DNA of 64,000 bases from the IMG/VR virus record IMGVR_UViG_3300037249_000571, positions 3,527 to 67,526 of that record. One strand, 5' to 3'. The stretch comes from a virus. Lineage: Duplodnaviria > Caudoviricetes. Position 1 is the first letter of the stretch; every line of letters starts with the position of its first letter. Below, piece after piece: positions 2,468 through 32,277 of this stretch. The notes beneath the pieces were generated by a model. It searched no databases, was not told the origin of the DNA, and saw only the letters and a program-made list of their open reading frames with translations. The position numbers and the translations under genes are program-made.

Positions 2468-2857
2468 TTATTCAGCCAAACAGGTCAGGCCCGACAGCGT
2501 AAACACCTTAGTAACAGATTCGCAGCCTTCCTTGCTCGCCACGACAGTGATCGTCTGCGTGCTCTTGTCAGCGATACGCAGCACGGCGATCCCGTCCTCA
2601 TCCAGAGTCACGGGATTCGTCACCTTCACGGTAATAGCCACGCCATCAACGCCGGGTACTTCCGCGTGAATCGCGATGTAGTTGCCGGAACTCAAATCCC
2701 CGCCAAACGCAGAGGAGTAGTCCTCAACATACTTCAAAGTACCGGTGATAGCGCTGTCACCGATGGTCACGTTGCTCTGAAGATCGGAAACGGTTTTGCC
2801 GAACAGATCCACAGAGCCGCCGATGCTGGTATCAACCTTCAAGCCTGTTAAGGGTTT
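2468..2857 (-). CDS. beta-rich (Ig-like) capsid extension, probably translated by -1 frameshift from the capsid gene
   Basis: ORF has only a TTG start with no RBS; A-AAC-CCT slippery heptamer at 2857-2851 directly before the capsid TAA opens into this frame. Confidence 0.55.
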   Translation of the reverse strand, partial: KPLTGLKVDTSIGGSVDLFGKTVSDLQSNVTIGDSAITGTLKYVEDYSSAFGGDLSSGNYIAIHAEVPGVDGVAITVKVTNPVTLDEDGIAVLRIADKSTQTITVVASKEGCESVTKVFTLSGLTCLAE

Positions 2858-4746
2858 TCAGTCACGTCTTCTTCCAGCGCGATGGCGGAGAAGGGGCGGG
2901 TGTTCGCGCCGCTCAGGCGGGTTTCAATCAGAGAAATCAGCTTATTGAAGTTCAGATCGAAATCGGTGAAGTGGCTGATTTCGCCGCCCTTGGTAGCGCC
3001 TACGTGATAGTCGCTGAAGTTGTAAACCAGAGCCAGCAGCTTCTTGGTGCGCACCACATCCTGGGTGCCGCCACCCTGTACGGGAACCCGCACGGTCACT
3101 TCACGGGTACGGTCCTCGAACTGCTCCACGGTCACGATTTTGCTCACGTTCAGCGCGGCCTTCAGTTCGTTCACGCTGTCATAAATGCGGCGGCCGTTCA
3201 GGTCGCGGGCCAGCAGCATGATGTTCAGCGTATGGGGATGGATCAGCATCATGGGACTGCCGCTGCCCTTGTACTTCTCACGGGCATACAGCAGGGTCTG
3301 GATGATGCTTTCGGCGTAAATATAGTTTTCGCCGAAGTTGGCGGCGGTGTTGGTGCCCTGGAGCTCGGTCCGCATGCTTTCCAGGTCCACGTCGGCGTGA
3401 ATGGTGTACAGCTCATCGTCGGTCCAGACGGGACGGATTTTGGTTTCATCGATCTTGCCGTCAGTGCCTTCCACGCGGCCGTCACCCAGCACGATGGCGG
3501 TGGCCAGTTCCTCGTTCAGGTCCATCCTGTCGATGCTGTACTGATACTGAACAATATCGAAGTCGGTGATATCCACCACGTCATCCCGATGAAGCTGATT
3601 CTTCACGAATACAGTGGTAGGTTCGGTGGTACGGCCCAGGAGGCTGATGTTGCCGCGGAAACCCTTTTCGGTTCCTTTCACATAGCCCTTGGCGCGCAGA
3701 TTTTCGATGTTGCGGACATCGGCATAGCGGGTGCGGATGCGGCTGATGGGGCTCTTATGGGTCCCGTTCAGTACCTCGCTGATCCAGCCCTGATCGGTGG
3801 TCAGCATTTCGGGCGCGCCGGGATTCAGCAGCTTGGGATCGGGGAACAGGGTGTGAATGTCGGCGAAGCCCAGATCATCGGCGGCGTGCGCCAATTCCTT
3901 TTTCTGCTCGGTGATGTACTTTTTCATCGCCTGCTTGAGGCCCATGTCGCCTTCCTTCGCCATCTTGATAATGGCTACGCCGTCCGCATGGCTCAGATAG
4001 GCGTCATTGGTCACGGTTTCCTGATCGAACAGGTTCTTTTTCATGGGGTCTTCCTCCTCTTCCGTTTCGGAATGTTTTACTTCGGAATCGCTCTTCTCTG
4101 CTTCGGATTCGGCGTTTCCTTCTTGGTCGAGAACGGTAGCCATAACGGCAGCGACAACGTTTCTCTGCTTTTCGGTCAGAGTATTCATGACATCCTGATA
4201 ACTTTCTTCGCCTTCCGGATCAGCTTTTTCGCTGGGGGCTTCTTTCTGTTCCTCACCGTCATCGGCATGGGCCAGCTCCAGCGGAAGTTCAATGAACTCG
4301 CCGGTGTAGATAATGCCCTGTTCCGGGTCTGTAGTGCTGGTGCCGTCGCTGTGATATACCACGGAATCGATCATGGCCCCGGGATTCGCGCCAGCGTATA
4401 CCAGGCTCACTTCCCGGATCATGCCGTGAATCACGGTCTTGGCTTCTTCTTTCAGCTGATTGGCATAGATCGAAAGCGCAGTAATGTCCTTATGCAGAAC
4501 CAATTTTTTACTGTTCAGGCCGGAGTCAGTGTCATTAAAAAAGCATTCCACACGCATGTCGCCGTTGGCGCTGTGCAGAATGCCATATCCGAGAACAGTA
4601 TCCGGCGTGGAGTGATTATGGTTCCACACCAGCGGCACCTTTTGCCCGTCCTGATGTTTGAATGCGTCCTTTGCGATGATGCGCCCGTCGGAACAACGCA
4701 TGTTGGCCCGCGTCGCATAACCTGCAAAATCGTATTCCTCAGCCAT
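2848..4746 (-). CDS. prohead protease - scaffold - major capsid fusion (HK97 type)
   Basis: N-terminal FAGYA..DGRII..VPLVWNH (HK97-type protease), acidic linker, C-terminal capsid-like region; directly after portal. Confidence 0.85.
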   Translation of the reverse strand: MAEEYDFAGYATRANMRCSDGRIIAKDAFKHQDGQKVPLVWNHNHSTPDTVLGYGILHSANGDMRVECFFNDTDSGLNSKKLVLHKDITALSIYANQLKEEAKTVIHGMIREVSLVYAGANPGAMIDSVVYHSDGTSTTDPEQGIIYTGEFIELPLELAHADDGEEQKEAPSEKADPEGEESYQDVMNTLTEKQRNVVAAVMATVLDQEGNAESEAEKSDSEVKHSETEEEEDPMKKNLFDQETVTNDAYLSHADGVAIIKMAKEGDMGLKQAMKKYITEQKKELAHAADDLGFADIHTLFPDPKLLNPGAPEMLTTDQGWISEVLNGTHKSPISRIRTRYADVRNIENLRAKGYVKGTEKGFRGNISLLGRTTEPTTVFVKNQLHRDDVVDITDFDIVQYQYSIDRMDLNEELATAIVLGDGRVEGTDGKIDETKIRPVWTDDELYTIHADVDLESMRTELQGTNTAANFGENYIYAESIIQTLLYAREKYKGSGSPMMLIHPHTLNIMLLARDLNGRRIYDSVNELKAALNVSKIVTVEQFEDRTREVTVRVPVQGGGTQDVVRTKKLLALVYNFSDYHVGATKGGEISHFTDFDLNFNKLISLIETRLSGANTRPFSAIALEEDVTENP

Positions 4747-6288: not shown

Positions 6289-6774
6289 TTAATCCTCCTT
6301 TACTCGCCGATCGAGATATGCGCTCGTCATGCGAGGCTCGTCTCCAGGTTCATCGATTTGCCAGGAAGTCGTGAATGTTCGCTGCTTTGTCACGCCAAGC
6401 TTCATCGGGATGGCGAATTGCTCCGCGCCTGATTCCCTGAACCTGCTTTCACTTTTCTTATTCATATCGAACCCGCTTTGTATATGCTGAAAAAGAATCG
6501 CTTCGTCGGTTTCTTTATAACCGACTTCAAAGAATTCTTTAGCATGCGGTTTGTCGGGGTTAAGACAATATTTCGCCAATTTGCTTTGAGCAACGGCAAA
6601 ACCCTTCGTACTATGATATATCCCGTCAACCATTGTAGCAGATTCTTCTGATTTTTCAATAGTCTTTCGTCTCGGCTCATGGCCTAATTGTTCTGGGCTT
6701 CTGCGAACGCCCCATTTCATTCCCTTTACGCCGTAATGGCAGAGAACGCCACCCAAGAATTGTTCGTAGATCAT
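6289..6774 (-). CDS. HYG-KGMKWGVRR leader protein with C-terminal DUF6883-like putative nuclease toxin domain
   Basis: leader LCHYGVKGMKWGVRRSPEQLGH; C-terminal KLAKYCLNPDKPH...TSWQID...PRMTSAY resembles DUF6883 (recalled, unverified). Confidence 0.55.
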   Translation of the reverse strand: MIYEQFLGGVLCHYGVKGMKWGVRRSPEQLGHEPRRKTIEKSEESATMVDGIYHSTKGFAVAQSKLAKYCLNPDKPHAKEFFEVGYKETDEAILFQHIQSGFDMNKKSESRFRESGAEQFAIPMKLGVTKQRTFTTSWQIDEPGDEPRMTSAYLDRRVKED

Positions 6775-12080: not shown

Positions 12081-12113
12081 AGGGAGGGGGTGGTTTTTTC
12101 AGACCCCCTCCCT
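12081..12113. other. perfect 11-bp GC-rich inverted repeat without U-tract
   Basis: AGGGAGGGGGT / ACCCCCTCCCT with 11-nt loop, directly after the RNAP operon. Confidence 0.6.
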
Positions 12114-12120: not shown

Positions 12121-12375
12121 TTACATCTTCTTCATACTGCGTCTCACCTTCTTATAGATATTCCGGAAGTCATACTTGATGATCTCGTTGATCGCTGATT
12201 CAATTTCCCGATTGTTTTCTTCATCTGTCATTTCATCGCTTGTGTTAGCGATTCTTGCCAGATATTCACACGAGTCATAGCCTTTTTCTTTGTCAAACAG
12301 CAGCCACTGATTGAACTGAGTGAACGGATTGTACGGATTATCAAACGTTGTAAGCATACACGATTCGTTTGCCAT
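12121..12375 (-). CDS. small protein directly downstream of the RNAP gene
   Basis: 84 aa from MANESC with RBS; LTTFDNPYNPF motif. Confidence 0.7.
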   Translation of the reverse strand: MANESCMLTTFDNPYNPFTQFNQWLLFDKEKGYDSCEYLARIANTSDEMTDEENNREIESAINEIIKYDFRNIYKKVRRSMKKM

Positions 12376-12389
12376 TCCATTCACCCCTT

Positions 12390-15299
12390 TCATTTCAGGT
12401 ACTTGGATACCGTGGACGAGGAGATACCCAAAGCGTCCGCGATTTCGGAGGTCGTGTAGCCGGAACTCTTCATGGCCCTGATCTTCGCCTGCTTGCCCTC
12501 GGACAAAGCGCTCTGGCTTCTGGGCGTCGCATACGATCTGACCTGATCAATGTCCGCAAAGCGCAGGATCTGGTTCAGGATATTCTCGCTTATTGCGCCA
12601 GCCTGAATAGCTTCCCATCCTCTGGGCGTGATCTCAACGGGATTGCGCTGCGCTCCAAATCGGATTCGGGCGCGGCTCAAAGCCATCTGCGCTTGCTTTT
12701 TCTTTTCCTTATTGGTCATGTCTGGATTGGCTTTCACCATGGCGCTTACTTCGCTCTTGGCCGCAAGCTGTGCCTGCCGTTCGCGAGGCGCATTCTTGAG
12801 GGCGACGTTAAGCTGCGCCATCAGGTGATCGACTTCATCCCGATAGGTCTCCTTTGCGGTGGCGCTGTATTTGATGCGTCCCGTTGAAACCATTTCTTTT
12901 CTGGCCTGGTTCGCCATGGCCTTCATCTGGTTCGCATAGTGGGCGTATGCTTCTTCCTGAACGGTCCCAGAAGACAGCTTCCGGGCATCCCCGGTCTCCA
13001 TCATCTTGGTGGAATCCTGGGTACGCACCCTCGTCTTGCCGTTCTTATCCACATACTCCTCATGCACGCTCTTATACAGCAGGGCGCCTTCCGGCTTGGT
13101 CGGATCGTACCAATCTTTGCCCTTCTGGTTGATCTTGGGGGTACCGACCCGCTTTTCCACCGCAATAGGGCTCTTGGCCCGGGAGAGCAAGGTGGAAGCT
13201 CCGCCACGATCATTTCCATCTTCGTCGGTGTATCCCTGCCACTTGCGTTTCAGATAAGCAACCTCGTTGTCTACCTCGCTCTGCTTCCAGTCCAGCTTAT
13301 GCTTCTCGGCATCGATAACGACCATCGAATGCCGGACGGCTTTGGCGATGTCCCCTTCCGGCGCGCCTTTCAAGGTCATGTCGGTGATCAGATTGCTGAT
13401 CTTTCCCATTTCCATCTGGGTGTTCCGCATCACCTTGAACTCGTGTCCGTCACGATAATAATGCGTGACCCCATTTGCGTCCGTTTCTTTTCTGGAATAG
13501 CCGTAGCTCATTTTGGGATCGAAGCCTTCCAGCCCCTTCAGCGGTGGCGTGGAAGTGATCTTCACATTGCTGAAACGGGAATTGCAGGGGATCACCATGA
13601 CGGTATCACCGTCGAAGTCGGCCCCGGAAAGCCTGGCCGCAACGTTGGCGTTGATGCCGATGGCGTCGGCCGGTGTGTTGCCTAAAATCCGCATGCCATC
13701 CGGATGCTTGTTGTTCACCTTCAGGATCGGAATCTCAAACGTTCCACCATGCGGATACCGGATCAGCGCTACTGTTTCCCCATCATGGTAATTCGGCGCG
13801 TAGCATTCGTTGTCATTCAACGTGGCGATAGGAAGGATCACCTGATACTTCTGCCTGGGAAGCGCGGCAGCCTGCATGTGAACGGCAGCGGAATCGCAAT
13901 CGTTGGCAAAGGTCTCCAGTAATTGCTTCTTCACGGTCGGGTTGGTCAGGACGCAGATCTCTTCGTATTCCGTTTTCTTGTCGGCGAGGGCCAAGTTCAG
14001 CTGCTTGGTGATCAGCTGCATACTCTGCTTGGCTAAGAATTGGTGCGGCGTCGAATCCGCCCATTCTCCCCAATCGCCTTCCATGCGGGTCTTATTGATC
14101 AGGCCGAGCTTTCGCTCTCCATTCTCATCCGTGTATTCGTACTGGCCGCCCTCCTGCCGGAGCAGCGCGCCAAACGGATTATTCGGATCGTTGGTTTTGA
14201 TGGCTTTCAGCGCTTCAGAACCCGGCTTCTTGTTCGTGTTGAATATCACGTCAACGCCGTCGGGCATGTCGTCGCTGTAGAACGCCATCCCTTTCAGGTA
14301 CTTATCGCCATCTACCAGAATACGGACCTGCGCGTAGTGGCTGCCCTCCAGACTCAGATCGGCAACGCCGCGGCGAAGCTCGATCGTCCCGTCCTTTTCA
14401 ACACTGGTGTGTCCATCCGGCGTCGGATCGTCTCTGTACCGAACCAGAAGCCTGCTGGAATCCATGGAAGCAGGATATTGGAAGCCTTTTACGAATACGT
14501 CGTTTCCGTCCTCGTCCACGCGCATTTTGTAGTCGGTAATGGTATGGATTTGATCGAAATTGTAAATATCCTTATGCTCGGTTCCGGGCGGGCAAAGCAC
14601 TTTCAAATGGGTCACTTTGCCGGGGTTGGTAGCCTGCGGAACGCTGCCGCCATAAATGACATACCCTTCGTCTTCCAGCATCTTCAGCGCTTGATTCAGT
14701 TTTTCCTGACTGATGTTCAATTCTCTGGCAACGTCTCCAGTACCGGAAATGGCTTCTCCAAGCTCTTTTTCCACACCGGCGCCCACGTCGATCATGCCCT
14801 TTTCGTCCACCTGCGAGCGAAGAAAATCAGCGGTCGCTTTGGCAGCGTTCATTCGGGCGGCGGAGCGTTCGTTCAGCAGTGAGCGCAATGTGGATTCATT
14901 GATGCCCATTTCCCTTGCCACCTGGGCAGGACTCTTTCCGGCGTCCAGCAAAGCCTTGGCTCGATCAATGCGCTCGGAACGTTCGGCGTTGTGGTCATTG
15001 GCGTATCGCTTGCGAAGCTCCGTCGTACTGTCCAAACCAACGGCGGTAGCGATTTCTTTTTCGCTCAGGCCCTGCTTCCGCAATTCACGAACGCGGCTGG
15101 CAAAGTCTCCGCTGTGCTGGTAAGGATCGCCGCCGCTGCCCAAAGGATATCTTCCGGAACCGGGTCCTGGCGCGCCGTCCATTTTGCTGCGGCCGTAGTG
15201 TATCAGAAAATCATCGAAATCTTCCTCTCCGACGGCTAATGAATCCGCCAGTCCGTAAGACTCGGAGGGCGTCAATTCCTCATCCAGAATATAAGTCAT
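12390..15299 (-). CDS. single-subunit two-barrel RNA polymerase (YonO/RDR-like) fused to multiple HTH domains
   Basis: AQVR...LKG (barrel B), LIRYPH and LSGADFDGD at 13619-13605 (barrel A catalytic motif); three N-terminal and one C-terminal HTH. Confidence 0.8.
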   Translation of the reverse strand: MTYILDEELTPSESYGLADSLAVGEEDFDDFLIHYGRSKMDGAPGPGSGRYPLGSGGDPYQHSGDFASRVRELRKQGLSEKEIATAVGLDSTTELRKRYANDHNAERSERIDRAKALLDAGKSPAQVAREMGINESTLRSLLNERSAARMNAAKATADFLRSQVDEKGMIDVGAGVEKELGEAISGTGDVARELNISQEKLNQALKMLEDEGYVIYGGSVPQATNPGKVTHLKVLCPPGTEHKDIYNFDQIHTITDYKMRVDEDGNDVFVKGFQYPASMDSSRLLVRYRDDPTPDGHTSVEKDGTIELRRGVADLSLEGSHYAQVRILVDGDKYLKGMAFYSDDMPDGVDVIFNTNKKPGSEALKAIKTNDPNNPFGALLRQEGGQYEYTDENGERKLGLINKTRMEGDWGEWADSTPHQFLAKQSMQLITKQLNLALADKKTEYEEICVLTNPTVKKQLLETFANDCDSAAVHMQAAALPRQKYQVILPIATLNDNECYAPNYHDGETVALIRYPHGGTFEIPILKVNNKHPDGMRILGNTPADAIGINANVAARLSGADFDGDTVMVIPCNSRFSNVKITSTPPLKGLEGFDPKMSYGYSRKETDANGVTHYYRDGHEFKVMRNTQMEMGKISNLITDMTLKGAPEGDIAKAVRHSMVVIDAEKHKLDWKQSEVDNEVAYLKRKWQGYTDEDGNDRGGASTLLSRAKSPIAVEKRVGTPKINQKGKDWYDPTKPEGALLYKSVHEEYVDKNGKTRVRTQDSTKMMETGDARKLSSGTVQEEAYAHYANQMKAMANQARKEMVSTGRIKYSATAKETYRDEVDHLMAQLNVALKNAPRERQAQLAAKSEVSAMVKANPDMTNKEKKKQAQMALSRARIRFGAQRNPVEITPRGWEAIQAGAISENILNQILRFADIDQVRSYATPRSQSALSEGKQAKIRAMKSSGYTTSEIADALGISSSTVSKYLK

Positions 15300-15301: not shown

Positions 15302-15859
15302 TCAGCCCTCCTGTTCCTTGATCCTACGAATGATCTTATCGTAGTCGATGATCTTGTTCATGATGGGGAGAATCTCGTCGGCTCCCGGCTGATGGTACAG
15401 CACCTCGTCATTCTGGTATAGCCGGAGTTCGGTTTGTATCATACCGGGTTTTACCTTATATTCCAGGCAGAACAGCGCAGCGTACACCATCAGCTGCTCC
15501 ATGTGCGCCGGAGTCTTTCCGGTTTTCAGATCATGAATCCGAAGGAAATTCTGTCGGAACATGATCGCGTCGGCGGTGCCATAACAGTTCTCGCTGTAAA
15601 ACAAAACCTGCTCGGATTCCATCTTGTACTTGATGGCGTCGTTCACGAACATGTTCAGCGTCTTGTCCACCTTGGGAAGCTTCTGGCCGAGCTTGATGCA
15701 GGTGGACGCGAAGGCGTGCAGCTCAACGCCTTGCTGGGTTGCCAGGAAATTGCGGTACGCTTCCGCTATTTTGTCTGAATCATAATTGATCCAGTGAAAT
15801 TTACTTGCCGACAGGAAGGCGTGGGTTCCCTCCAAGTCCGAATGCTTGTTCCAGTTCAT
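15302..15859 (-). CDS. PD-(D/E)XK nuclease (DUF2800/Cas4-like)
   Basis: HAFLSAS, GTADAI, IHDLKTG, QLMVYA motifs. Confidence 0.75.
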   Translation of the reverse strand: MNWNKHSDLEGTHAFLSASKFHWINYDSDKIAEAYRNFLATQQGVELHAFASTCIKLGQKLPKVDKTLNMFVNDAIKYKMESEQVLFYSENCYGTADAIMFRQNFLRIHDLKTGKTPAHMEQLMVYAALFCLEYKVKPGMIQTELRLYQNDEVLYHQPGADEILPIMNKIIDYDKIIRRIKEQEG

Positions 15860-16133
15860 GCAGGACTTCCTCCTTGTTCTCGGGAAATATGAATCTCGAA
15901 AAGGACATGCCATCCATGAGCTTGACATAATATTCCTGATTGGGCTGACGGTGCGCCTTGGCGCTTTTCTTACACTCCAGCGCGGCCCAATGTTTTCCCC
16001 AGAGAATCAACAGATCGGGAATGCCCTGAATATACCCGGAGTCCAGCTTAATGACCATGCAGCCGATGAAGCGCTTCTTGACTTCGCGAATCAATGCGTT
16101 CTGAAATCTGCTTTCAAGCTTTCTGCCTTTCAT
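15801..16133 (-). CDS. VRR-NUC domain nuclease
   Basis: ESRFQ, GIPDLLIL, ALECKK, QPNQ motifs; start at MKGRK with GAGGAG RBS. Confidence 0.8.
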   Translation of the reverse strand: MKGRKLESRFQNALIREVKKRFIGCMVIKLDSGYIQGIPDLLILWGKHWAALECKKSAKAHRQPNQEYYVKLMDGMSFSRFIFPENKEEVLHELEQAFGLGGNPRLPVGK

Positions 16134-16195
16134 TAAGCTGGCTCCTCTCTCCGGGCGTAAACGAAAAGAGAGAAGGCGCGTATTGTCTTCTCTCT

Positions 16196-16224
16196 TCATA
16201 AAAGGGCATGTTTTTTTCGCGGAA
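16196..16224 (-). promoter_or_regulatory. phage-specific promoter-like motif upstream of VRR-NUC/nuclease/RNAP operon
   Basis: TTCCGC-G-16nt-TTATGA, same geometry as nine other copies. Confidence 0.7.
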
Positions 16225-16271
16225 ATATAAAAAGCCCGTGTTTATATTTTCACGGACTTTCGTTTGTTATG

Positions 16272-16586
16272 TCAAAGCATGGGGTCGTCAGACTTGATAG
16301 GGTATAGGGCGCAGTGCTTCTTGCAGAACGGATAGTTTTCATGGCAGCTTGCAACGCAGGCGCTTCCGGGCGGATCGGCACCGATATAATTCATATACTC
16401 GGCGCGGCTCTCTATTTCCTGCCCGCAGTCGGCGCAGTACCAAATATGCTTTTTCGGTTCCCACTTCATGCTCCCGCCGCATTGATCGCAGGAGACAGCG
16501 TCGCCGTTCTCGTCATAAGCTCCGCATTCCCATTCCTTGTTCATGTCCAGTCGATATATTTCCTCATAGTCGTCAAATGAATTCAT
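16272..16586 (-). CDS. moron: Cys-rich zinc-finger protein
   Basis: CDQC, CADC, C..SC, CKKHC; own promoter and terminator (about 16229-16260). Confidence 0.65.
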   Translation of the reverse strand: MNSFDDYEEIYRLDMNKEWECGAYDENGDAVSCDQCGGSMKWEPKKHIWYCADCGQEIESRAEYMNYIGADPPGSACVASCHENYPFCKKHCALYPIKSDDPML

Positions 16587-24020: not shown

Positions 24021-24212
24021 TTTCTTTCGCTCCTTTATTTCATCAGATTGACGATTCCACGAATGAAGTTGATTGCGAACAGCGCCGACGCATACAGGTA
24101 TCTGTACGCTCCGTGGAGACGGAATTTTTCATACATCCTGTAAGCGATCGTCGCATATGCCGCCAGCGCACAGGCGTCAAGGCAATACCGAAGAACTTCT
24201 GCTATCATGTCT

Positions 24213-24458
24213 TTATTCCTCGCGATAGAGGCTAACCTCAACTCTCTCGGGCATATCGCGCAGTCTTCTCTCCAGCATTTCTTCAATGGAATATTGACAT
24301 GAAGTGCAAAATTTCAAAGGACGCAAATAAAATGCGCGATCTTCTCGATCTCTGCACGCCTTGTGAATTTCGTACTTGTGGCTCGTGACGAATCTGTCTA
24401 TCTGCTTACCGCAGCAATCGCAAACCCAAATGTCCATTTTCGTTTTCTCCTTCACCAT
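24213..24458 (-). CDS. Cys-rich hypothetical protein
   Basis: CDCCG...CTSC. Confidence 0.5.
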   Translation of the reverse strand: MVKEKTKMDIWVCDCCGKQIDRFVTSHKYEIHKACRDREDRAFYLRPLKFCTSCQYSIEEMLERRLRDMPERVEVSLYREE

Positions 24459-25687
24459 TTGATTAACCGGCTCCGGCTCTCATTGAAGTCTTTCTTTTGA
24501 TCCAGCGCCCGGCTGATGGCCAGATCGATCCCGCTGCGGCTCTTCAGATAGTAATAGTACAGGTCGTGATAGGGCGTGGTCAGCCGGTCGATCCGTCCTC
24601 TGGACTGTTTCAGCACCCGATAGCTGTACTGCTGGGAATAAAAAAGGATCGTATCTGTTTCAATACAGTTCCAGGCTTCCGCTCCGGCGCTGTAGTTCAC
24701 CAGATAGACCCATCTTTCTCCTTTGGGTACTTCCTCATGCTTGTGGCTGTTCAGTTCAGCGATCACCGTTCCGGGCGGCCATGCGAGCGCGCGAAGGATC
24801 TCAAGCTCGTAATCGAAGCTGTAGAATATAATCATCCGAGGATGCTTTTCCGCGATCTCCAACGCCATCCGCTGCCTGCTTTCGTCCATGTTCACCGCTT
24901 TGCGGATCAGGTAATACATCTTTCCAGGGTTCTCGATAGGCAGCCCCTCCCATGGGTCCCATCGGGTCCGTATGATGTTTTTGTACAGCGCTACGTTGTA
25001 TTGAACGTAGGCGTCCTCGTGATGCGCTTCCGTAGAACGGGTAAAAGCCATGTCCACCAGAATGGAATCCCGTAGCCTTTCCAATTTCGGCGTTCCAATA
25101 TAATGGTCGATCTTGGGGAACTTCGTGACGTATTGGGAATATACCACGTGTTCCTTATTGAACTGGGTCCGGTTGCGGAAGAATCCGTTGGCGATGAACA
25201 GCGGAATATAATCGCTCCAGCTGTCTCCCGGGGTGGCGGAGAGAAGAATCCATCGGTTGCTTCGGGTGATCCTCAGAAAGCTCTTTACCCATACGCCGTT
25301 GCCTACCACCCGCTGCTCGTCGAATATAAAGAAGGCGTCCCGTATGTCCGCGTATTTCTGGATGTTGTTCCAGCTATCGACGACGATTTGGTTTCCGTAC
25401 ATATTCGTTTTTTGATCCGTCGTCATCAGGAACGGCGCCATCTCTTTCTCCCACTCGCAGGAGTCGCGCTTTTTCGCGGTGGTGATGATGTACAGGTCTT
25501 TGGGCGGATCATCCATCGGCATGTAGTCGCCGCCCTCCAGCGTATCGGTATCCCCGCCGTTTTCCAGATAGTAATAGCTTAAAGCGGTAATGCTCTTTCC
25601 ACTGCCGACACCTCCGCACAATACGCAGCCGTTTTTCATACGGCCGATCGCATCGATCTGATGAGGATATAAATGGATGTTCGCCAT
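24452..25687 (-). CDS. superfamily 2 helicase
   Basis: LYPHQ, GGVGSGKS, FIFDEQ, LLSATPG, QSRGRIDR. Confidence 0.9.
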   Translation of the reverse strand: MANIHLYPHQIDAIGRMKNGCVLCGGVGSGKSITALSYYYLENGGDTDTLEGGDYMPMDDPPKDLYIITTAKKRDSCEWEKEMAPFLMTTDQKTNMYGNQIVVDSWNNIQKYADIRDAFFIFDEQRVVGNGVWVKSFLRITRSNRWILLSATPGDSWSDYIPLFIANGFFRNRTQFNKEHVVYSQYVTKFPKIDHYIGTPKLERLRDSILVDMAFTRSTEAHHEDAYVQYNVALYKNIIRTRWDPWEGLPIENPGKMYYLIRKAVNMDESRQRMALEIAEKHPRMIIFYSFDYELEILRALAWPPGTVIAELNSHKHEEVPKGERWVYLVNYSAGAEAWNCIETDTILFYSQQYSYRVLKQSRGRIDRLTTPYHDLYYYYLKSRSGIDLAISRALDQKKDFNESRSRLIKW

Positions 25688-25811
25688 GGCGTCACCCCTC
25701 GCTTATCAATGAGAATATGGGCTGTTTCCTCTTTTGTGCGTGAGCATGTAGTATATTTGGACATTTAACCGGACATCCAAAGCCGGCACCCATGTTGATC
25801 GCCGGATGAAT

Positions 25812-26333
25812 TTACTCGTCCTCTTCCGTCATCTGACGGCGGTAGCGGGCGGCGTAGGGGTCGTCATCCAGGCGCTGCTCCACGTACATGGTGCTGATGT
25901 ACAGGTTTTCTTCGTGCGTAACCGGGTCGTACTCATGCGGATTCAGCACCACGTTCACATTTTTCACGCGGATGTTGTCCAGGCAGGCTACGTTTTCTTC
26001 CGTCAGCAGCACCGGATCGTTACCGCCAGTCACCAGATACACCTTGGGCGGCCACTTCACCGGTTCCCCATTCGTCTTGCGGTAACGCAGGATAGCCTGA
26101 ACGAAATATTTGGGCTGGTAGGTTTCGGGGTCGTCGGTGGGACGGGGCTTGGTGGAACGCACTTTGAAGCCGGCCGCTTTCAGTTCGCGCACCTGCTCCA
26201 GATCGGGGATCAGCACGTTGACCTTGCGGCGGGAATCCCCGTACCTGTCCCGTTCGGGAAGGCCGGCGAAATTCGTGGTATAGATGAAGTTGGTGTCGTC
26301 GATGTTGTACTGAATCGGTTTACGTTCGTTCAT
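25812..26333 (-). CDS. single-stranded DNA-binding protein
   Basis: TNFAG...RKVNV motif, acidic C-tail TEEDE, beside polymerase. Confidence 0.65.
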   Translation of the reverse strand: MNERKPIQYNIDDTNFIYTTNFAGLPERDRYGDSRRKVNVLIPDLEQVRELKAAGFKVRSTKPRPTDDPETYQPKYFVQAILRYRKTNGEPVKWPPKVYLVTGGNDPVLLTEENVACLDNIRVKNVNVVLNPHEYDPVTHEENLYISTMYVEQRLDDDPYAARYRRQMTEEDE

Positions 26334-26339
26334 GGTTTT

Positions 26340-26543
26340 TTACTCCCTTACATATTTTTTGATATTTCCTTGTTCATCTTGGATCGTTACTTGTGTTCCA
26401 GGCATAAACCAGTGTTTTTCCTGGAGCCATGTGGTGTCGTGCGTGGCCCAATCATCCATTGTCACCTGATACCGTTTCGCGACGGTCCTGTGGTTGACTG
26501 TCACACGCGCTTTTCCCTCATAACAAAGGGTGAACGTCTTCAT
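26340..26543 (-). CDS. hypothetical protein
   Basis: 67 aa, TGATG overlap with polymerase stop. Confidence 0.5.
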   Translation of the reverse strand: MKTFTLCYEGKARVTVNHRTVAKRYQVTMDDWATHDTTWLQEKHWFMPGTQVTIQDEQGNIKKYVRE

Positions 26544-29500
26544 CAGGCGCTCACCTCTTTGATCGGTTTATCTTCCGGCGGAACGTCGTATCGGTCTTCG
26601 GATACGAACCATTCAAAGTCGCCGTACTCGGATATAGATTCTACAGCCGCGTCTACCAGTTTGTCGTAGAATTTCCGGTCAATGTCGTCTTCCCGGTGCA
26701 GTTCGCGCACCATTTCCGATTCCATCCACCGGAAATCCTTGCTGCCCGTCGCGAAGGAGTATTTGCCGTCCGCTTCCCGCAGCAGCCACCCGCCCCCGCA
26801 TCCGGGCTTAACGGGCGTGAATTGCCCCACACGCCCAACGAAGTGGTAGTCGTGGCCGGCATCAATGGTTTCCTGAAGCGCCCGCAGTTTTCGTTCCAGA
26901 TCGACGCTGAGAGGAAACGTTCCCTGTTTTGCCAGGAAATCCTGATAATCTTCCCAACGCATGCCGATCGCTTTCAGGCTCTTTTGCAGCAGCTTTTCCT
27001 CCGCTTCCACGTTCGGAAGTTCCTCGTTCATGTCCAGATATAACGCACCGCTGACCGAGAACGTTTCGCACAGGTCGTCGAAGGTGATAGGCTCTTTGCT
27101 GAAAAGAGACTTGAATACGTAGGGTACTGCGAACTGCTTTCCGGTTGCTGTCCATTCGCCGGGGTGATCCTTTACGTCGCCCGGCACGTACCCGTACTTG
27201 CCCATACAGGCTTCCGGTGTATCGTACTTGGCGATATAGACGGCGTCGTTCACGAGGCACATCTTGTCGTAGGTGGCCTCATGCTCAAAGGTGTAGCCAT
27301 ATTTCTTCCCGAAATCCATCACAAACTGGATGATGTCCCTGTCGGCATCAGGGATTTTAATGGAATCGGTTTTGATATGGGCGACGGTGTAGCCGCGTTT
27401 CTGAACCTCCCTTTTCAAATCCACCATGAACAAGGCGCCTCGCTTTGCAACGATGTTGTCCTTGTTCCGGGGATCGCGGAAAGCGTTCTCAAACGCCGCG
27501 CTGGTCAGCCCGTACACGGAATTGATGGCCGTTTTCAGGGCGTTCGCCAGCTCTTTCGCCGTCAATTCTCCGTTCTTTACCTTTTGGATATAAGGCGTCA
27601 GCTTCCCGTCCAGAATATTGTTCACGTCTTCCCAGGCTTTGTGCTTGATGCTCACGCGCCCGTCCACGATTTCCTTGAACCGTGCCGTAAATCGGGGGCC
27701 GAATAGGCATTCCGCGATGATGCTGTGGGGATGCATAGAAGCTACGTCCAATAGCGCTACGTTCCCATGCATTCCGGGAACAGCGTATACATAGCCCCCT
27801 TCGCCCACTTCTTCATCCCGGTAGATACTCACGTAGCCGTTTTTTCCCGACAGATCAATGCTTTCGTAACCGGACTGCGTTTTCTCGGGTGGTCCATAGT
27901 AATACCCGGGGAAATATGGCAGCAGGCTTTCTTCTTCGCCATGAAGCTGGTTCATCATATCGGGGCAGGCGTCCTTCAGGAATTTGAGCACTTCATCCTT
28001 CAGTTCCTTTACCGGCTTGCTCAAATCCCGATAGTTGAAATCCGTCTGCGGTTTCCGTACCTGCCCGAATATGATTTTCGTTGTCAAGCTGTTCGTGGTA
28101 TCGTTTACTGTGAGCCCCGCGATATCGGCCAGAATCTGTCTCGCCGTCCAGTCGCCGGACAGATGGTTGAATACCGCTTCCGTTGCAATCACGTCGTTAT
28201 CGCAGTATTCAGCCACCTTTGACCACAGTTCTTCAGGAACGGGCTTGTCCCATGGCAGGCCAAGCTCCTGATGGTGAATCCCCAGCTCGATCTCGAATTT
28301 TTTCAGGCTCTTTTTGTTCGCGGCAGAGGCAAAGTCATACACATCGGTATAGCTCACATTGTAGGCTTCTCCGAAGAAACTGTCGTTTCGCTTCCCACCG
28401 TTGATGATCCGCTGGCTCAGGTCGTAAAGCTGCTTGTTGCTGTAGCCCATCAGCCTGGCATAAAGAATATGATTATCGTACCGTCGGCAGTTAAAGCCGA
28501 TCAGCCGGTAGCGCATCAATTCCTCGATTTCAGCAGGCTTCGGATTGATCATCCGAACCACCGGCTTTCCCTCGCCAGCCGCTTTCCAGTTCACCAGAAA
28601 GAGATTGGGAAATACTTCCACGTCATAAAATACGATGGGCGCTTCGCTTTCTGTTTTTGCCTCTATTCTGTCCGCTGAGCAGAACTGCATCTTATTCACA
28701 AGCTTCAGGCAGTAGTCCGCCTGATGAGTGCTTCCGGCGGCGAAGGCAATCACGGCGTTCCGCATATCGCTCACGTCGTAGCTCAGCTTTTCGTCGTTGT
28801 AGGCGTCCTCCAGGATCTTGTATATGAAATCGATGCTGGGCTTTGTTCCCGCGTGAATCTCCTTATTCAGGTTTCGTTGAATCAAAGCTCGCAGGCCCTT
28901 TTCGCTTTGAACCGTATCGAAGTTGACTATTTTTTTCGCCTCCTTCAAGGGCAGTCCGTGCGTAATGGTATTCAGCGGCAAGTCGTTGCAGAGCGTCAGT
29001 TTTCGCCTCAAGCTGCTGTTGCCGTTATATACCTTTACCTCGATATGATTGGCGTACATTCGGCTCAACTGCGTCACGTCGCCATTGTAGATATAATGCA
29101 GATGAATGGCTTTCCCGCTTTTGCTCACTTCCGCGTAGGTGGGCGGCCATTTGCTTGCTTCCTCCAGATTCTTCGCGAAGTCCTTTTCCCCGTCCGGACC
29201 CGGAATATCAAAGTCGATCACGATCACGTTTTCGGGGATCTTCACGTAATGAGCTTTGGTTGTATCCAGATCGGCGAGCGTCGTCTTTACCCGATCCCAC
29301 CGCATGGACGGCGTTCCCGTCTCATTGGCGTACTGGGCGGGGCATTCGGCGAATTGCTTATCGAACAGGGAAGGCTGCTCCATTAGCCGCAAAGCGGGCG
29401 GTGTTTTTGTCTCTACTTTTTCATTGTGCTTTTCCTCCTCGAACTTTTCTCTTCGGAATCCCTTGTAATAGCTGCGCACTCTGGTTCCGTCCGGCAGGAT

Positions 29501-30739
29501 TTCCCGTTCGCTGTATTCCCGGAAGTAATTCTTCAATTCTTCCTTGAAAGCGCGCTGGGAATACGGAAAGTTCACCTTAGCGTCCTCGCAGTAGTTCTTG
29601 TACATCGTCCAGGCCGCTTTCAGCGTCGTGTCATCCTGCTTATGGAACACTGCCCAGCTATCCATCACGAAGTTGTAAAAGTCGTTGCTGGCCCCTAACA
29701 TGTTCAGAGGAATATAATCGTCGTAGGCGTCCGGATGATCCAAATATTCCTCTAAACAATGATTGGCGATGGCGCCAAGTTCAAAGGTGATCTGCTTCAT
29801 CAGCCGCCGGTATTCGCCCGGATGCAGCTTTTCCCCAGTGGGAGAAATATCGATCAGCCGCCTGATCAGGCCGCTTTTCGCGTCCGTGATCTTAACGGGC
29901 CGGTTTGTGCCCATAAACAGGAAGCATTTGAAGCTGTTAGAATATAATCCCTTGAACTTTTCGTTCACCGTCATCAGCTCGTGGCTTACCAGGCTGTTGA
30001 GCCTTGTGTTGTCCTCGATCCTGCTCAGATCGCCGTCGTGCTGGATCGCTACCAGCGGATTGCTTTTGAATGCTTCCAGGGCGAAGCTGTCGTTGGCCTG
30101 CCCCAGCGCTTTCGCGTCGAATGTGCTTGTGTAGCCCTCGAACAACTGCTGGATCACGTTCAGCACCGTGGATTTTCCCGTTCCCGCCGCGCCGTAAAAC
30201 ACCACGAACTTTTGCAGTTTCCGGCTTTCTCCCGATACGATGCTGCCAATGGCCCATTCGATTTTCCGGCGTTCTTCCTCGGAATATAACACTTCCATCA
30301 TCCGGTCCCAGGCGCTCGTATCGCCTTTCTCCAAAGGATAGGACAGACGTTTGGAAGCGTAGTCCTTCCGGGTGGTCACCGTGTTGGCGAAAATCAGCTT
30401 CTCGTCCAGCATGTGGAAAGAATCCCGCATCTGCCGCTGGCAATACTTGTGCCATGCGTCGATCATGCCGCTTTCCGCGTCCCACAGATGCATCACCCGG
30501 TATCCGTTCTCAAATCGATGGGCGTTTTCCTTGGCGTACTTATCCAGCTCTCTGTCGATCAGATCCACGGCGTCCTGCTCGTTGGTGGACCACAAGCCTC
30601 TTTCTTCTACCCAGATCGCATAGAAATCACCGCCGCGTATCATTAAATGTTCGCTCGGATTCCGTATGATGAATTTAGGGTAGATTTCCGTTATCCCGCG
30701 TTTTCCCTGGCGGGTGGAAATCATCAGAAAGTCGATCAT
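26543..30739 (-). CDS. SF3 helicase - primase(-like) - family B DNA polymerase fusion
   Basis: GAAGTGKST; VIDFD..SKSGKAIHLHY; YDVE / FNCRRYD / YCDND exonuclease; LDVASMHP, KTAINSVYG, IKTDS polymerase motifs. Confidence 0.85.
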   Translation of the reverse strand: MIDFLMISTRQGKRGITEIYPKFIIRNPSEHLMIRGGDFYAIWVEERGLWSTNEQDAVDLIDRELDKYAKENAHRFENGYRVMHLWDAESGMIDAWHKYCQRQMRDSFHMLDEKLIFANTVTTRKDYASKRLSYPLEKGDTSAWDRMMEVLYSEEERRKIEWAIGSIVSGESRKLQKFVVFYGAAGTGKSTVLNVIQQLFEGYTSTFDAKALGQANDSFALEAFKSNPLVAIQHDGDLSRIEDNTRLNSLVSHELMTVNEKFKGLYSNSFKCFLFMGTNRPVKITDAKSGLIRRLIDISPTGEKLHPGEYRRLMKQITFELGAIANHCLEEYLDHPDAYDDYIPLNMLGASNDFYNFVMDSWAVFHKQDDTTLKAAWTMYKNYCEDAKVNFPYSQRAFKEELKNYFREYSEREILPDGTRVRSYYKGFRREKFEEEKHNEKVETKTPPALRLMEQPSLFDKQFAECPAQYANETGTPSMRWDRVKTTLADLDTTKAHYVKIPENVIVIDFDIPGPDGEKDFAKNLEEASKWPPTYAEVSKSGKAIHLHYIYNGDVTQLSRMYANHIEVKVYNGNSSLRRKLTLCNDLPLNTITHGLPLKEAKKIVNFDTVQSEKGLRALIQRNLNKEIHAGTKPSIDFIYKILEDAYNDEKLSYDVSDMRNAVIAFAAGSTHQADYCLKLVNKMQFCSADRIEAKTESEAPIVFYDVEVFPNLFLVNWKAAGEGKPVVRMINPKPAEIEELMRYRLIGFNCRRYDNHILYARLMGYSNKQLYDLSQRIINGGKRNDSFFGEAYNVSYTDVYDFASAANKKSLKKFEIELGIHHQELGLPWDKPVPEELWSKVAEYCDNDVIATEAVFNHLSGDWTARQILADIAGLTVNDTTNSLTTKIIFGQVRKPQTDFNYRDLSKPVKELKDEVLKFLKDACPDMMNQLHGEEESLLPYFPGYYYGPPEKTQSGYESIDLSGKNGYVSIYRDEEVGEGGYVYAVPGMHGNVALLDVASMHPHSIIAECLFGPRFTARFKEIVDGRVSIKHKAWEDVNNILDGKLTPYIQKVKNGELTAKELANALKTAINSVYGLTSAAFENAFRDPRNKDNIVAKRGALFMVDLKREVQKRGYTVAHIKTDSIKIPDADRDIIQFVMDFGKKYGYTFEHEATYDKMCLVNDAVYIAKYDTPEACMGKYGYVPGDVKDHPGEWTATGKQFAVPYVFKSLFSKEPITFDDLCETFSVSGALYLDMNEELPNVEAEEKLLQKSLKAIGMRWEDYQDFLAKQGTFPLSVDLERKLRALQETIDAGHDYHFVGRVGQFTPVKPGCGGGWLLREADGKYSFATGSKDFRWMESEMVRELHREDDIDRKFYDKLVDAAVESISEYGDFEWFVSEDRYDVPPEDKPIKEVSA

Positions 30740-30742
30740 GCC

Positions 30743-30946
30743 TCATTCCGCCGTTTCCTTCTTGTTTTTCTTATCCAGCTTTTCGTTCAGTTCGTCGATC
30801 TGCTTCTGTAAACCGGCAGAGAGGATCAAGGTCCCCAGCGTCAGCATAATGATCGCCGTTCCAATATTTCTCCTGGTCGCCATCATCTTGCGGATGATTT
30901 TTCGTGTTTGCTTTGAGCTGATGATAACATAATACGTATCATCCAT
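30743..30946 (-). CDS. small TM/coiled-coil protein
   Basis: single hydrophobic helix. Confidence 0.55.
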   Translation of the reverse strand: MDDTYYVIISSKQTRKIIRKMMATRRNIGTAIIMLTLGTLILSAGLQKQIDELNEKLDKKNKKETAE

Positions 30947-30949
30947 GGT

Positions 30950-31540
30950 TTATTCGCTCCCTTCATCGGTAAGTTCGATCAGATATCGCATCATTTGATA
31001 CCAGATTTCCATACGCGGCATGTTGTACGGCGGGTTTCGTACAATGAACAGTCCACCATGGCCGTCGTCAGCATATCGTCTTTCCAAAAAACAGGAGACA
31101 GCCGCCTCAACGAAACTTTCGTTAAAACGACTGTCATCCATGTAATTGAGACAAAGACTTTCAACCATTTCAAAGAACCATTTCCCCGTCCGGTTTCCGC
31201 TGTCGGGATCGTCCATAATGGATTCCTCGCACCGATGCGCCAGGGCAACCATCATTTCCAGCACGCTGCACGGCCTTGTGTCGATGGTTTGCCTGATCTC
31301 CTCAGCAGAATATCCGTGCTCATAGGCAAATCGGTATCTTAAATCGGTTCCGTCGTCAGCGCGGCTTTTGTCCATCGGTAGAATATACGTAAATTCCGTT
31401 CGATGCAGCAGCCGCATCAGCTTGTTCCAGGTTCTTTCTCTGGTATATTGCGGATATGCTACCAAACGAACCATCCAGTCAAAATATTTTTGTCCTATAT
31501 TCGCGGTCGCTCTCCTCGCATACACCTCTCTTTCAGCCAT
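30950..31540 (-). CDS. conserved hypothetical protein
   Basis: 196-aa ORF with RBS. Confidence 0.7.
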   Translation of the reverse strand: MAEREVYARRATANIGQKYFDWMVRLVAYPQYTRERTWNKLMRLLHRTEFTYILPMDKSRADDGTDLRYRFAYEHGYSAEEIRQTIDTRPCSVLEMMVALAHRCEESIMDDPDSGNRTGKWFFEMVESLCLNYMDDSRFNESFVEAAVSCFLERRYADDGHGGLFIVRNPPYNMPRMEIWYQMMRYLIELTDEGSE

Positions 31541-31552
31541 ATATCATTTTCC

Positions 31553-32122
31553 TTAATTTGCCAAATAAGGCTTCTCTTTCAGAATGGCTGCGTAGGTTCG
31601 CGGATCGAGCAGGATTTCAAAATCGGTTTTCAGCCGATCATTCCGCACGTGTACGGAATCGTCCTCGTATTCCCCGAAATGGGTCAGGCTTTCCTTGCCC
31701 ACATATTCCTCGATCAGGTCGTCGTCCATGGGTTTCTCATTGCTGTCCGTCAGCGTTCCGTCCGCGTAATAGGTCAGCGTTACGGAATCATAGCCTTCCT
31801 GATCCTCGAATTCATCCGGGGAAATCACGCGCGGCTTCAAAACGAGAGCAGGCGTTTCCTCCTGCGTATAGCCGTATTGCTTCGCGTAGTGGACGTACTT
31901 CCTTTTGACTTCTTCCGTCACCGGCGTTTCTTTTTCGGAGGGTTTTGGGGAGGCGGCGTCTTTTTTCTTATCCTCGTTCTGCTTCAGAAATACTTCTTTC
32001 ACAGATTCGATTTCTTCTTGGGCCAGCTGGGCATACTGCTGCTCCAGCAGCTTTTTCCCGATCCAGATACCGACGCCGCCGCCGGCAATAAAGGAAAGAA
32101 TGCCGATCGTTCCTTTGTTCAT
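31553..32122 (-). CDS. hypothetical protein with N-terminal membrane anchor
   Basis: FIAGGGVGIWIG segment, acidic C-terminal domain. Confidence 0.7.
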   Translation of the reverse strand: MNKGTIGILSFIAGGGVGIWIGKKLLEQQYAQLAQEEIESVKEVFLKQNEDKKKDAASPKPSEKETPVTEEVKRKYVHYAKQYGYTQEETPALVLKPRVISPDEFEDQEGYDSVTLTYYADGTLTDSNEKPMDDDLIEEYVGKESLTHFGEYEDDSVHVRNDRLKTDFEILLDPRTYAAILKEKPYLAN

Positions 32123-32277
32123 TCTTCGTCACCCCTTGTTTTTATCGTTACGACCGTCACAGCCAATCCGCAGAACATTGCGGAAGCACTGAATAAGATG
32201 CCGCCGACAATATGGCGCTTTCGTTCAGTATCCAGCATCCGGTCCAATCGAAAAATAATTACGTCCAAATAGTCCAT
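32119..32277 (-). CDS. 52-aa TM protein (not in ORF track)
   Basis: MDYLDV...KRHIVGGILFS; GAGGTG RBS; ATGA overlap. Confidence 0.6.
   Translation of the reverse strand: MDYLDVIIFRLDRMLDTERKRHIVGGILFSASAMFCGLAVTVVTIKTRGDEE

Follow-up and report, generated by a model that had tools for sequence, protein, structure and literature searches.

How the minimal single-chain RNA polymerases of the two-barrel type find their promoters is an open question, and it is raised again by a minus-strand gene in the window, i.e. the whole stretch of 64,000 nucleotides of phage DNA that was analysed: its product of 969 residues had been described, in an initial annotation, as a two-barrel polymerase with four built-in helix-turn-helix (HTH) modules. 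The translation does contain the three core motifs that had been pointed out, in the order found in RDR/QDE-1-like polymerases: AQVR..LKG (within AQVRILVDGDKYLKG, residues 323-337), LIRYPH (residues 512-517) and LSGADFDGD (residues 557-565). These motifs are far beyond chance, because their key residues do not vary among 150 representatives of clusters at 50% identity: Q324, R326, K336, G337, R514, P516, S558, G559, A560, D561, D563, G564 and D565. The gut phage is temperate, as had been proposed, with an integrase gene at positions 42260-43435 and with relatives that are integrated in large bacterial contigs; its host probably belongs to the Oscillospiraceae. The features of the locus are collected in Table 1.

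Table 1. Features of the polymerase locus, in coordinates of the window.
Feature	Position	Strand	Basis
Perfect 10-bp GC-rich hairpin, 8 nt after the 84-aa gene	12082..12112	-	direct sequence reading
84-aa partner gene, PHROG 4303, three-helix protein	12121..12375	-	ORF, homologues, model
Polymerase CDS (P0001), 969 aa	12390..15299	-	uninterrupted ORF and translation
C-terminal HTH, residues 930-969	12393..12512	-	Pfam on fragment
Two-barrel catalytic core (predicted), residues 274-804	12888..14480	-	VIA-align and Foldseek
Second (beta-prime-like) barrel: R514-x-P516 and metal loop D561-F-D563-G-D565	13605..13760	-	invariant; hhalign, PF05183
First (beta-like) barrel signature D303, R326, K336	14292..14393	-	invariant in 150 representatives
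Winged HTH3, residues 176-236	14592..14774	-	HTH_24, 23.6 bits vs cut-off 21.9
HTH2, residues 112-150	14850..14966	-	HTH_29, HTH_23, HTH_31, E about 1e-4 on fragment
HTH1, residues 66-100	15000..15104	-	model helices 66-75, 80-86, 92-119
N-terminal leader, residues 26-56 (DFDDFLIHYG...GSGRYPLGSGG)	15132..15224	-	within disordered segment
Cas4-like PD-(D/E)XK exonuclease, start MNWNKHS	15302..15859	-	PHROG 3953, E 1e-78
110-aa endonuclease, first gene of the cassette	15801..16133	-	PHROG 93
Leader hairpin, terminator-like: GAAGAGAGAAG...CTTCTCTC then TTTT	16160..16195	-	dG -9.6, z -3.5
Promoter-like motif TCCGCG-N16-TTATGA ahead of the cassette	16196..16223	-	copy counts

By its sequence, the polymerase is a member of the very common 1706 ORF75 family (PHROG 4291), which has already been predicted by computation in 2010 and in 2021: Ruprich-Robert & Thuriaux (2010, PMC2919709) have described a "1706 family" of YonO-like proteins, and Koert et al. 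(2021, bioRxiv 10.1101/842583) have described an "HTH domain / putative RNA polymerase" as the signature protein of a group of actinophages, Lactococcus phages and Faecalibacterium phages. The match to the PHROG profile has an E-value of 0 (1149 bits) and aligns residues 28-969 with profile positions 8-906 of 909; the phage collection holds 250 matching records, and the family comprises 2199 clusters at 50% identity and more than 8000 at 90% identity. In gut viromes the family is very common, yet most of its records say merely "HTH DNA-binding protein". Like the rest of the family, the window copy has a leader, three HTH modules, a two-barrel core with DFDGD and IRYPH, a helical region and a C-terminal HTH, with a small gene directly 3' and a position beside the packaging genes; HTH modules are found at both ends in Mudcat gp94 (46% identity) and in 1706 ORF75 (37%) as well. 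What sets it apart from known records is its divergence, i.e. it is no more than 49% identical to the records of the phage collection, and 73-75% identical to relatives from metagenomes, and a megablast of the locus against that collection has returned no match; otherwise, the window copy shows nothing beyond its many relatives. We have found no bench test or measured activity of any family member in the literature. The family offers a compact enzyme with built-in DNA-reading modules and a conserved candidate promoter, and it occurs in cultivable systems (Lactococcus phage 1706, and phages of Arthrobacter, Gordonia and Streptomyces) and in prophages of the isolates Hungatella hathewayi WAL-18680 and [Ruminococcus] torques ATCC 27756.

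The comparison of an AF2 model of the polymerase (computed with 76 sequences; pLDDT 86.5, pTM 0.78) with solved structures bears out the proposed two-barrel fold, and confirms at the level of the predicted structure that the protein, a putative enzyme, is related to the catalytic core of cellular RNA polymerases, in a single chain to which four DNA-binding modules are fused. In VIA-align, the core matches QDE-1 (Z 15.6, 364 aligned residues, rmsd 4.3), RDR2 (Z 14.9) and two gp64-type enzymes of Thermus phages, P32 gp64 (Z 13.3) and P74 gp62 (Z 13.2), while residues 474-702 reach a Z of about 10 with Rpb1-type subunits; Foldseek ranks QDE-1 first (E 4e-9), followed by P74 gp62 and P32 gp64, RDR2, P23-45 gp96, and then Pol II Rpb1. 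The matches in BFVD are phage entries named "RNA-dependent RNA polymerase" and crAss-like proteins. Eight residues are universal among the two-barrel, or double-psi beta-barrel, polymerases, including D709, R738, K743, R962 and P964 of QDE-1 (PMC2919709); their counterparts here are D303, R326, K336, R514, P516, D561, D563 and D565, the first five as mapped onto these QDE-1 residues by spacing and aligned ranges, and all eight invariant in the 150 representatives. Searches of PDB chains by sequence, with the single protein and with the family profile, have found HTH proteins only and have not reached QDE-1; the link to QDE-1 therefore needed fold comparison. The Pfam RdRP family PF05183 matches residues 552-637, in a search with the core fragment, below its gathering threshold (16.8 vs 23.8 bits, E 0.003). 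A precomputed match to PF05183 is present in a few relatives.

Among the known systems, YonO of the Bacillus prophage SPbeta is a proven DNA-dependent RNA polymerase (Forrest et al. 2017, PMC5467207), which has a single start site for its transcription of late genes. The initial annotation had set the polymerase beside YonO, and this comparison holds in part: both are single-chain two-barrel polymerases of temperate phages, with the motifs of the second barrel paired by hhalign (R-x-P-H and DxDGD, corresponding to ILRSPH and FDNDGD in YonO), but YonO is a remote relative and not the nearest one. Beyond the catalytic loops, hhalign has shown no sequence homology to YonO (E 0.17, probability 0.4%, 82 columns), in a comparison whose sensitivity is limited by its single-sequence template; no Bacillus phage is found among the 250 tblastn hits of the polymerase. 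A further difference is that YonO reads late genes, whereas the putative promoters of the window phage are located in the early/middle region. In Thermus phage P23-45, gp96 (virion) and gp64 (non-virion) are likewise two-barrel RNA polymerases (PMC10770324); together with gp66 from phi14:2, a crAss-like phage, they are, like the window polymerase, small phage enzymes of this type, which read private early-gene promoters, two of them being virion-borne (PMC10770324). HTH modules are unreported for the P23-45 and phi14:2 enzymes, the term being absent from the text of PMC10770324.

The four HTH modules that had been proposed, three N-terminal and one C-terminal, are upheld by different kinds of evidence; the strings that had drawn attention to them are GLSEKEIATAVG (residues 77-88), KSPAQVAREMG (122-132), DVARELNIS (189-197) and YTTSEIADALGISSSTVSKYL (948-968). 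Pfam backs HTH2, HTH3 and the C-terminal HTH, and the model adds helices 124-131, 135-141 and 144-150 in HTH2, and helices 176-184 and 198-210 with strands 214-221 and 229-236 in HTH3. HTH1, which by itself gives a weak Pfam match, rests on its three predicted helices and on a repeat-like resemblance to both HTH2 and the C-terminal HTH; the sole profile that supports it is PHROG 664, a family of phage DNA-binding proteins, which covers residues 68-157. The C-terminal fragment is above the cut-offs of HTH_23, HTH_7, HTH_5, GerE and HTH_24; in the whole-protein search, Sigma70_r4_2 scores 36 bits at this module, where many HTH families fit equally well. Membership of the sigma-70 family has been rejected: the C-terminal HTH is not specific to region 4, and a six-frame search of the phage has found no Sigma70_r2, the region of -10 recognition.

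The promoter-like motif ahead of the cassette (Table 1), with the consensus CGCGAAAAAAACAT-N-CCCTTTTATGAAGAG, occurs in six exact copies, where 0.1 would be expected, and by weight matrix in ten copies between positions 16223 and 41912, all on the minus strand. All ten are intergenic and on the coding strand, 20-45 nt before a ribosome-binding site, and they are confined to the early/middle region, with the late structural genes having no copy. A relaxed form of the motif precedes the polymerase by about 950 nt in 69 of the 80 Clostridia relatives. The actinophage Mudcat has a look-alike in the corresponding position, ACGC-N7-ACA-N5-TATAATGAGGGAGAG; because its downstream element includes a perfect TATAAT, host sigma-A is possible there. 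Phage 1706 has no exact copy of the window motif and carries a different one, in ten copies, in its early region. We regard the motif as a putative non-sigma-A, promoter-like element, a candidate promoter; on sequence evidence, its link to the polymerase is one of co-occurrence.

The reading that we prefer, with a probability of roughly 0.65, is that the ORF75-family RNA polymerase starts transcription from about ten private promoters of this consensus, which would be recognised not by a sigma factor but by the HTH modules of the protein itself; a more tentative part of this reading is that the enzyme may be delivered in the virion. Promoter reading without a sigma factor, at a bipartite promoter, and possible packaging had both been put forward in the initial annotation; they are plausible and have gained indirect support. 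The late structural genes would presumably be read by another route. Activity, promoter reading and packaging are what we infer for the polymerase.

The polymerase gene is part of a conserved cassette of four genes, which encodes the endonuclease, the Cas4-like exonuclease, the polymerase and the 84-aa protein. The last of these had been noted as tightly coupled downstream, and rightly so: its ATG at position 12375, backed by 50 aligned homologues, comes 15 nt beyond the stop of the polymerase (an alternative upstream in-frame ATG would give 90 residues and an overlap of 4 nt), and the gene is located directly 3' of the polymerase in all 78 relatives with room for it. It has an equivalent in orf76 of phage 1706, 43% identity to Mudcat gp95, and nearest homologues that are 66-94% identical to the window copy. 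After the gene, the GC-rich hairpin of Table 1 has no T-run, and the terminator scan has made no call there. The 84-aa protein is probably a partner of the polymerase, and this strict linkage and good conservation lend some weight to an alternative that we hold to be unlikely, though the strongest of its competitors: the phage RNA polymerase would not be self-sufficient, but made after infection from a transcript of the host RNA polymerase, and dependent on a host factor or on the 84-aa partner for finding promoters, while its HTH modules would, for example, hold the enzyme on phage DNA ends or act as a pilot protein. A weak host-type, sigma-70-like promoter candidate (TTGACA-18-GAAAAT, positions 16275-16246) just upstream of the cassette would suit such a course, and so would the case of YonO, whose promoter and need for extra factors are left open in PMC5467207; self-sufficiency is favoured by the four HTH modules, which family comparison places at fixed positions across phyla, and by the 84-aa protein itself, in which no DNA-binding fold can be recognised (its model, with a pLDDT of 75, consists of three helices, Foldseek gives no match with an E-value under 2.5, and there is no Pfam family).

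The two nucleases are linked to the polymerase with similar strictness: of 80 relatives, 78 carry the endonuclease gene upstream in the same orientation, and the Cas4-like exonuclease (53% identity to Mudcat gp93) is directly 5' in 78 of 79; phage 1706 differs from the window phage in having no Cas4-like gene directly upstream. This linkage, as well as the placement in the replication module by Koert et al., would fit a protein that is not a transcriptase, i.e. a polymerase with an RNA or ssDNA template, as in QDE-1, or a primer-maker that acts together with the neighbouring nucleases during replication or recombination, its HTH modules binding an origin or DNA ends. The closest solved folds point the same way: QDE-1 of Neurospora and plant RDR2, which match the core best in structure (about 360 residues, the same eight catalytic residues), are eukaryotic silencing enzymes with RNA or ssDNA templates, so that the AF2 model cannot tell template preference; their identity to the window polymerase is 11-14%, and its HTH profile matches all fall outside the regions aligned to them. 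We nevertheless consider this alternative improbable, given that the phage already encodes a primase-polymerase fusion, that YonO and the enzymes of P23-45, the sole tested relatives from bacterial viruses, are transcriptases of the DNA-dependent kind, and that a conserved promoter-like motif, ahead of genes led by ribosome-binding sites, travels with the polymerase. It is very improbable that the host RNA polymerase reads the ten motifs, with the HTH modules or another phage factor as activator and the barrel core as a relic or in an unrelated role: the downstream element is indeed -10-like, as has also been noted for Gordonia phage Vardy (PMC9671010), and becomes TATAAT in Mudcat, but the gut-clade element TTTATGA lacks the T with which a -10 box ends, the 35-nt motif persists among different hosts, for whose sigma-A promoters there is no reason to have it in common, and a relic core would hardly have every catalytic residue invariant in 150 diverse representatives.

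With the preferred reading of a polymerase that recognises its own promoters, we return to how it may reach the cell. The L-x-H-YG leader that had been reported is indeed present, as LIHYG at residues 32-36, within a segment of low pLDDT (residues 1-63); the family consensus is LxHYGxxxxSGRYPWGSG. The match of the leader to DUF7211 is weak (E 0.12 in one search, 0.012 in another), while another family member (P0141) carries a canonical DUF7211 leader, and DUF7211 is found on two head-module proteins of the same phage. In the GenBank record of phage 1706, which marks predictions as "putative", both ORF75 and orf7, with its LQHRGVIGMRWG leader, are named "structural protein"; we have found no mention of DUF7211 or of the KGMKWG motif in the literature. 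The label of ORF75, the DUF7211-variant leader held in common with the two head-module proteins, and the position of the gene behind its own putative promoter are hints of virion delivery. The disordered leader of HYG/DUF7211 type would load the enzyme into the capsid, from which it would enter the cell with the DNA, and the promoters ahead of its own gene could therefore fire; in P23-45, gp96 and the tape measure protein form a fusion, whereas here the short leader is the candidate loading signal. Prophage induction cannot use a packaged enzyme, and some host-driven expression must therefore exist, for which the sigma-70-like site at positions 16275-16246 is a weak candidate.

A bolder version of this scheme is tentative and, on balance, doubtful: the polymerase would be a sigma-independent, virion-delivered transcriptase; its leader of DUF7211 type would serve as a tag for head loading in general, which other cargo would also bear, e.g. 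the DUF6883 protein located between terL and portal; the four HTH modules would read a promoter of about 35 nt, which would have accompanied the polymerase on its way from Clostridia phages to actinophages; and the terminator in the leader of the operon would insulate it, being obeyed by the host polymerase and ignored by the phage enzyme. The hairpin in question keeps its outer GAGAG/CTCTC stem and its T-run in 53 of 61 relatives, while its inner stems are lineage-specific. RNAalifold has predicted no pairs in the 64-sequence alignment of the leaders, because the variable loops misalign; when the leaders are folded one by one, the hairpin is visible.

The gene that was initially annotated as encoding a phage single-subunit, two-barrel RNA polymerase with four helix-turn-helix (HTH) domains belongs to a source record of 67.5 kb, rated complete by CheckV, of which the window covers 64 kb. 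All of the strings quoted in the initial annotation have been found in the 969-aa translation; the observation is confirmed, and the interpretation is supported. The coordinates are collected in the table.

Coordinates of the polymerase, its sequence strings and neighbouring features (residues refer to the polymerase)
Feature	Position	Strand	Detail
Polymerase ORF	12390-15299	-	translation, 969 aa; cassette gene 3
Leader string LIHYG	residues 32-36
N-terminal HTH strings	residues 77-88, 122-132, 189-197
Catalytic string AQVRILVDGDKYLKG	residues 323-337
Catalytic string LIRYPH	residues 512-517
Catalytic string LSGADFDGD	residues 557-565
C-terminal HTH string	residues 948-968
Endonuclease	15801-16133	-	110 aa; cassette gene 1
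Cas4-like exonuclease	15302-15859	-	cassette gene 2
84-aa protein	12121-12375	-	cassette gene 4
Leader hairpin	16160-16195	-	GAGAG/CTCTC outer stem and T-run
Integrase	42260-43435

An AlphaFold2 model of the polymerase was built from 76 diverse relatives (mean pLDDT 86.5, pTM 0.78), with residues 1-63 predicted to be disordered. The comparison of this model with the PDB by Foldseek has placed the eukaryotic two-barrel polymerase QDE-1 at the top (E 4e-9), followed by Thermus phage P74 gp62 and P32 gp64, plant RDR2, P23-45 gp96 and Rpb1 of Pol II; the BFVD matches are phage entries labelled “RNA-dependent RNA polymerase” and crAss-like proteins. In VIA-align, the Z score is 15.6 for QDE-1 (364 residues, rmsd 4.3, model residues 274-804), 14.9 for RDR2 and 13.3 for P32 gp64; for the largest subunits of multisubunit RNA polymerases it is about 10, over residues 474-702. 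Eight residues are invariant in 150 family representatives, i.e. D303, R326, K336, R514, P516, D561, D563 and D565, and correspond, by their spacing and the aligned range, to D709, R738, K743, R962, P964, D1007, D1009 and D1011 of QDE-1. Because of these fold matches and invariant residues, the predicted two-barrel core, as proposed initially, is well supported. The single-chain RNA polymerase YonO of SPbeta appears from profile comparison to be a remote relative only: hhalign places IRYPH on ILRSPH and ADFDGD on FDNDGD, so that the R-x-P-H and DxDGD-type motifs are aligned, but only over 82 columns at E 0.17.

Among the HTH modules, HTH3 (residues 176-236) is of the winged-helix type and exceeds the HTH_24 cut-off (21.9 bits) with a score of 23.6, and HTH2 (112-150) has hits to many HTH families, with E of about 1e-4; HTH1 (66-100) is weak alone in Pfam, but three helices are predicted for it in the model, and the pattern G-x-S-x-x-E-I-A-x-x-x-G is common to HTH1, HTH2 and the C-terminal HTH, in agreement with the three N-terminal HTHs first described. 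For the C-terminal HTH (930-969), initially described as sigma-region-4-like, several Pfam cut-offs are exceeded; with the whole polymerase as query, Sigma70_r4_2 reaches 36 bits, but resolvase, LuxR and homeodomain-like families suit this HTH equally well. A six-frame search of the phage has found no sigma-70 region 2.

The polymerase adds a member to a common family which is already known and has been predicted by computation. PHROG 4291, labelled “RNA-dependent RNA polymerase”, matches it at full length (1149 bits, residues 28-969), and HTH families are its sole Pfam matches at default sensitivity. A tblastn search has returned 250 phage records, each below 50% identity, from Arthrobacter, Gordonia, Streptomyces, Lactococcus and Faecalibacterium phages and gut contigs, the majority annotated as “helix-turn-helix DNA-binding domain protein” and some as “RNA-dependent RNA polymerase”. 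The family is very large: clustering at 90% identity gives over 8000 clusters, and clustering at 50% identity gives 2199 (E up to 1e-3); of these 2199, the 150 that score best match over nearly the full length in almost all cases. The protein of Lactococcus phage 1706 has been described as one of five YonO-like families that carry the eight universal two-barrel residues (Ruprich-Robert & Thuriaux 2010, PMC2919709); HTH domains at the two termini, the DxDGD loop and a link to PF05183 by HHpred have also been reported, with the proposal of a signature gene for a group of actinophages, Lactococcus and Faecalibacterium phages (Koert et al. 2021, bioRxiv 10.1101/842583). Our literature search has found no biochemical study of the family.

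The polymerase gene occupies the third place in a four-gene cassette, which we have compared with 80 related loci in genomes of bacteria, the majority of them Lachnospiraceae, Oscillospiraceae and Ruminococcus. Some of these loci are prophages, since they are situated inside large chromosomal contigs of isolates, e.g. Hungatella hathewayi WAL-18680 (3.5-Mb supercontig) and [Ruminococcus] torques ATCC 27756. In 78 of 79 loci, the gene immediately preceding the polymerase is that of the exonuclease, and 78 of 80 contain the endonuclease; the small downstream gene noted initially directly follows the polymerase in all 78 loci with room for it, and its start at MANES is backed by 50 aligned homologues. 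The four cassette genes, in identical order, are also present in the actinophage Mudcat, and phage 1706 retains the small gene. One isolate genome, Cuneatibacter caecimuris DSM 29486, carries two different polymerase cassettes on two contigs (L027, L043). The cassette is followed by a GC hairpin and the terS/terL packaging genes; this perfect 10-bp hairpin (12082-12112, minus strand) lies 8 nt past the 84-aa gene, without a T-run, and is separated from terS by a structured intergenic region of 276 nt.

A promoter-like motif, TCCGCG-N16-TTATGR, occurs in six exact copies against 0.1 expected. A weight matrix finds ten copies at 16223-41912, all on the coding strand, each intergenic and 20-45 nt ahead of a ribosome-binding site and start codon: nine lie at 35549-41912 (minus strand), in a stretch of about 6.4 kb where small early genes adjoin the integrase, and one precedes the cassette, while the matrix finds no copy in the late region (structural, lysis). 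The copy before the cassette is kept in relatives as CGCGAAAAAAACAT-N-CCCTTTTATGAAGAGAG, a relaxed pattern being found at 69 of the 80 loci, and Mudcat has ACGCTAGAATTACACGGGGTATAATGAGGGAGAGGG at this place. Phage 1706 has instead ten copies of TTTTACA-N4-CTATAGTAGA, all in the early region (24044-42918, plus strand); a T-rich run is ahead of most of them, and AAGAAGG with ATG directly follows several. The suggested link between motif and polymerase is one of co-occurrence, not proof. Just upstream of the cassette's own motif, a sigma-70-like site (16246-16275, minus strand; TTGACA-18-GAAAAT, 10/12 matches) overlaps a hairpin, and could allow basal expression driven by the host.

Directly 3' of the cassette motif, the leader folds as GAAGAGAGAAG-loop-CTTCTCTC followed by TTTT (dG -9.6, z -3.5). 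Of 61 relatives, 53 retain the outer stem and the T-run, and the inner stems are lineage-specific in the alignment of these relatives (A4). This hairpin resembles an intrinsic terminator, here located within the polymerase operon's 5' leader; we would guess that it may attenuate transcription or insulate the operon from the host polymerase.

Three observations bear on the delivery of the enzyme within the virion. In the record of phage 1706, predicted functions bear the label “putative”, and a second class carries the plain label “structural protein”; the polymerase homologue, ORF75, is in the latter class, as is orf7, just upstream of terL, the N-terminus of which has LQHRGVIGMRWG. The “structural protein” labels are said to come from the virion mass spectrometry of Garneau et al. 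in 2008. The sequence H-[HY]-G-x-KGMKWGVRR (Pfam DUF7211) begins two small head-module proteins of the window phage (8600-9004 and 6289-6774, both minus strand); the polymerase family's consensus LxHYGxxxxSGRYPWGSG is a weak match to DUF7211, and one family member, P0141, has the canonical form. Lastly, one of the putative promoters of the polymerase precedes the polymerase gene itself, and therefore the enzyme would be needed already at infection. With these labels, the leader and the promoter position taken together, packaging is plausible and has about even odds. The protein encoded at 6289-6774, between terL and the portal gene, also has a DUF6883-like C-terminal domain.

The temperate lifestyle proposed initially is credible because of the integrase. 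A reverse transcriptase (46977-48821, minus strand; PHROG 1423, Pfam RVT_1), which probably belongs to a diversity-generating retroelement, adjoins a 2058-aa ORF (48698-54874), the sole matches of which are PHROG families of unknown function. PHROG 2152, also of unknown function, has three paralogues in the early/middle region (32494-33411, 35553-36341 and 37224-38012, minus strand). The 632-aa head gene at 2848-4746 (minus strand) is a full-length match to PHROG 3270 (head maturation protease), and may be the fused protease-capsid gene that has been reported for Arthrobacter phages of clusters AM/AU and for 1706 orf10.
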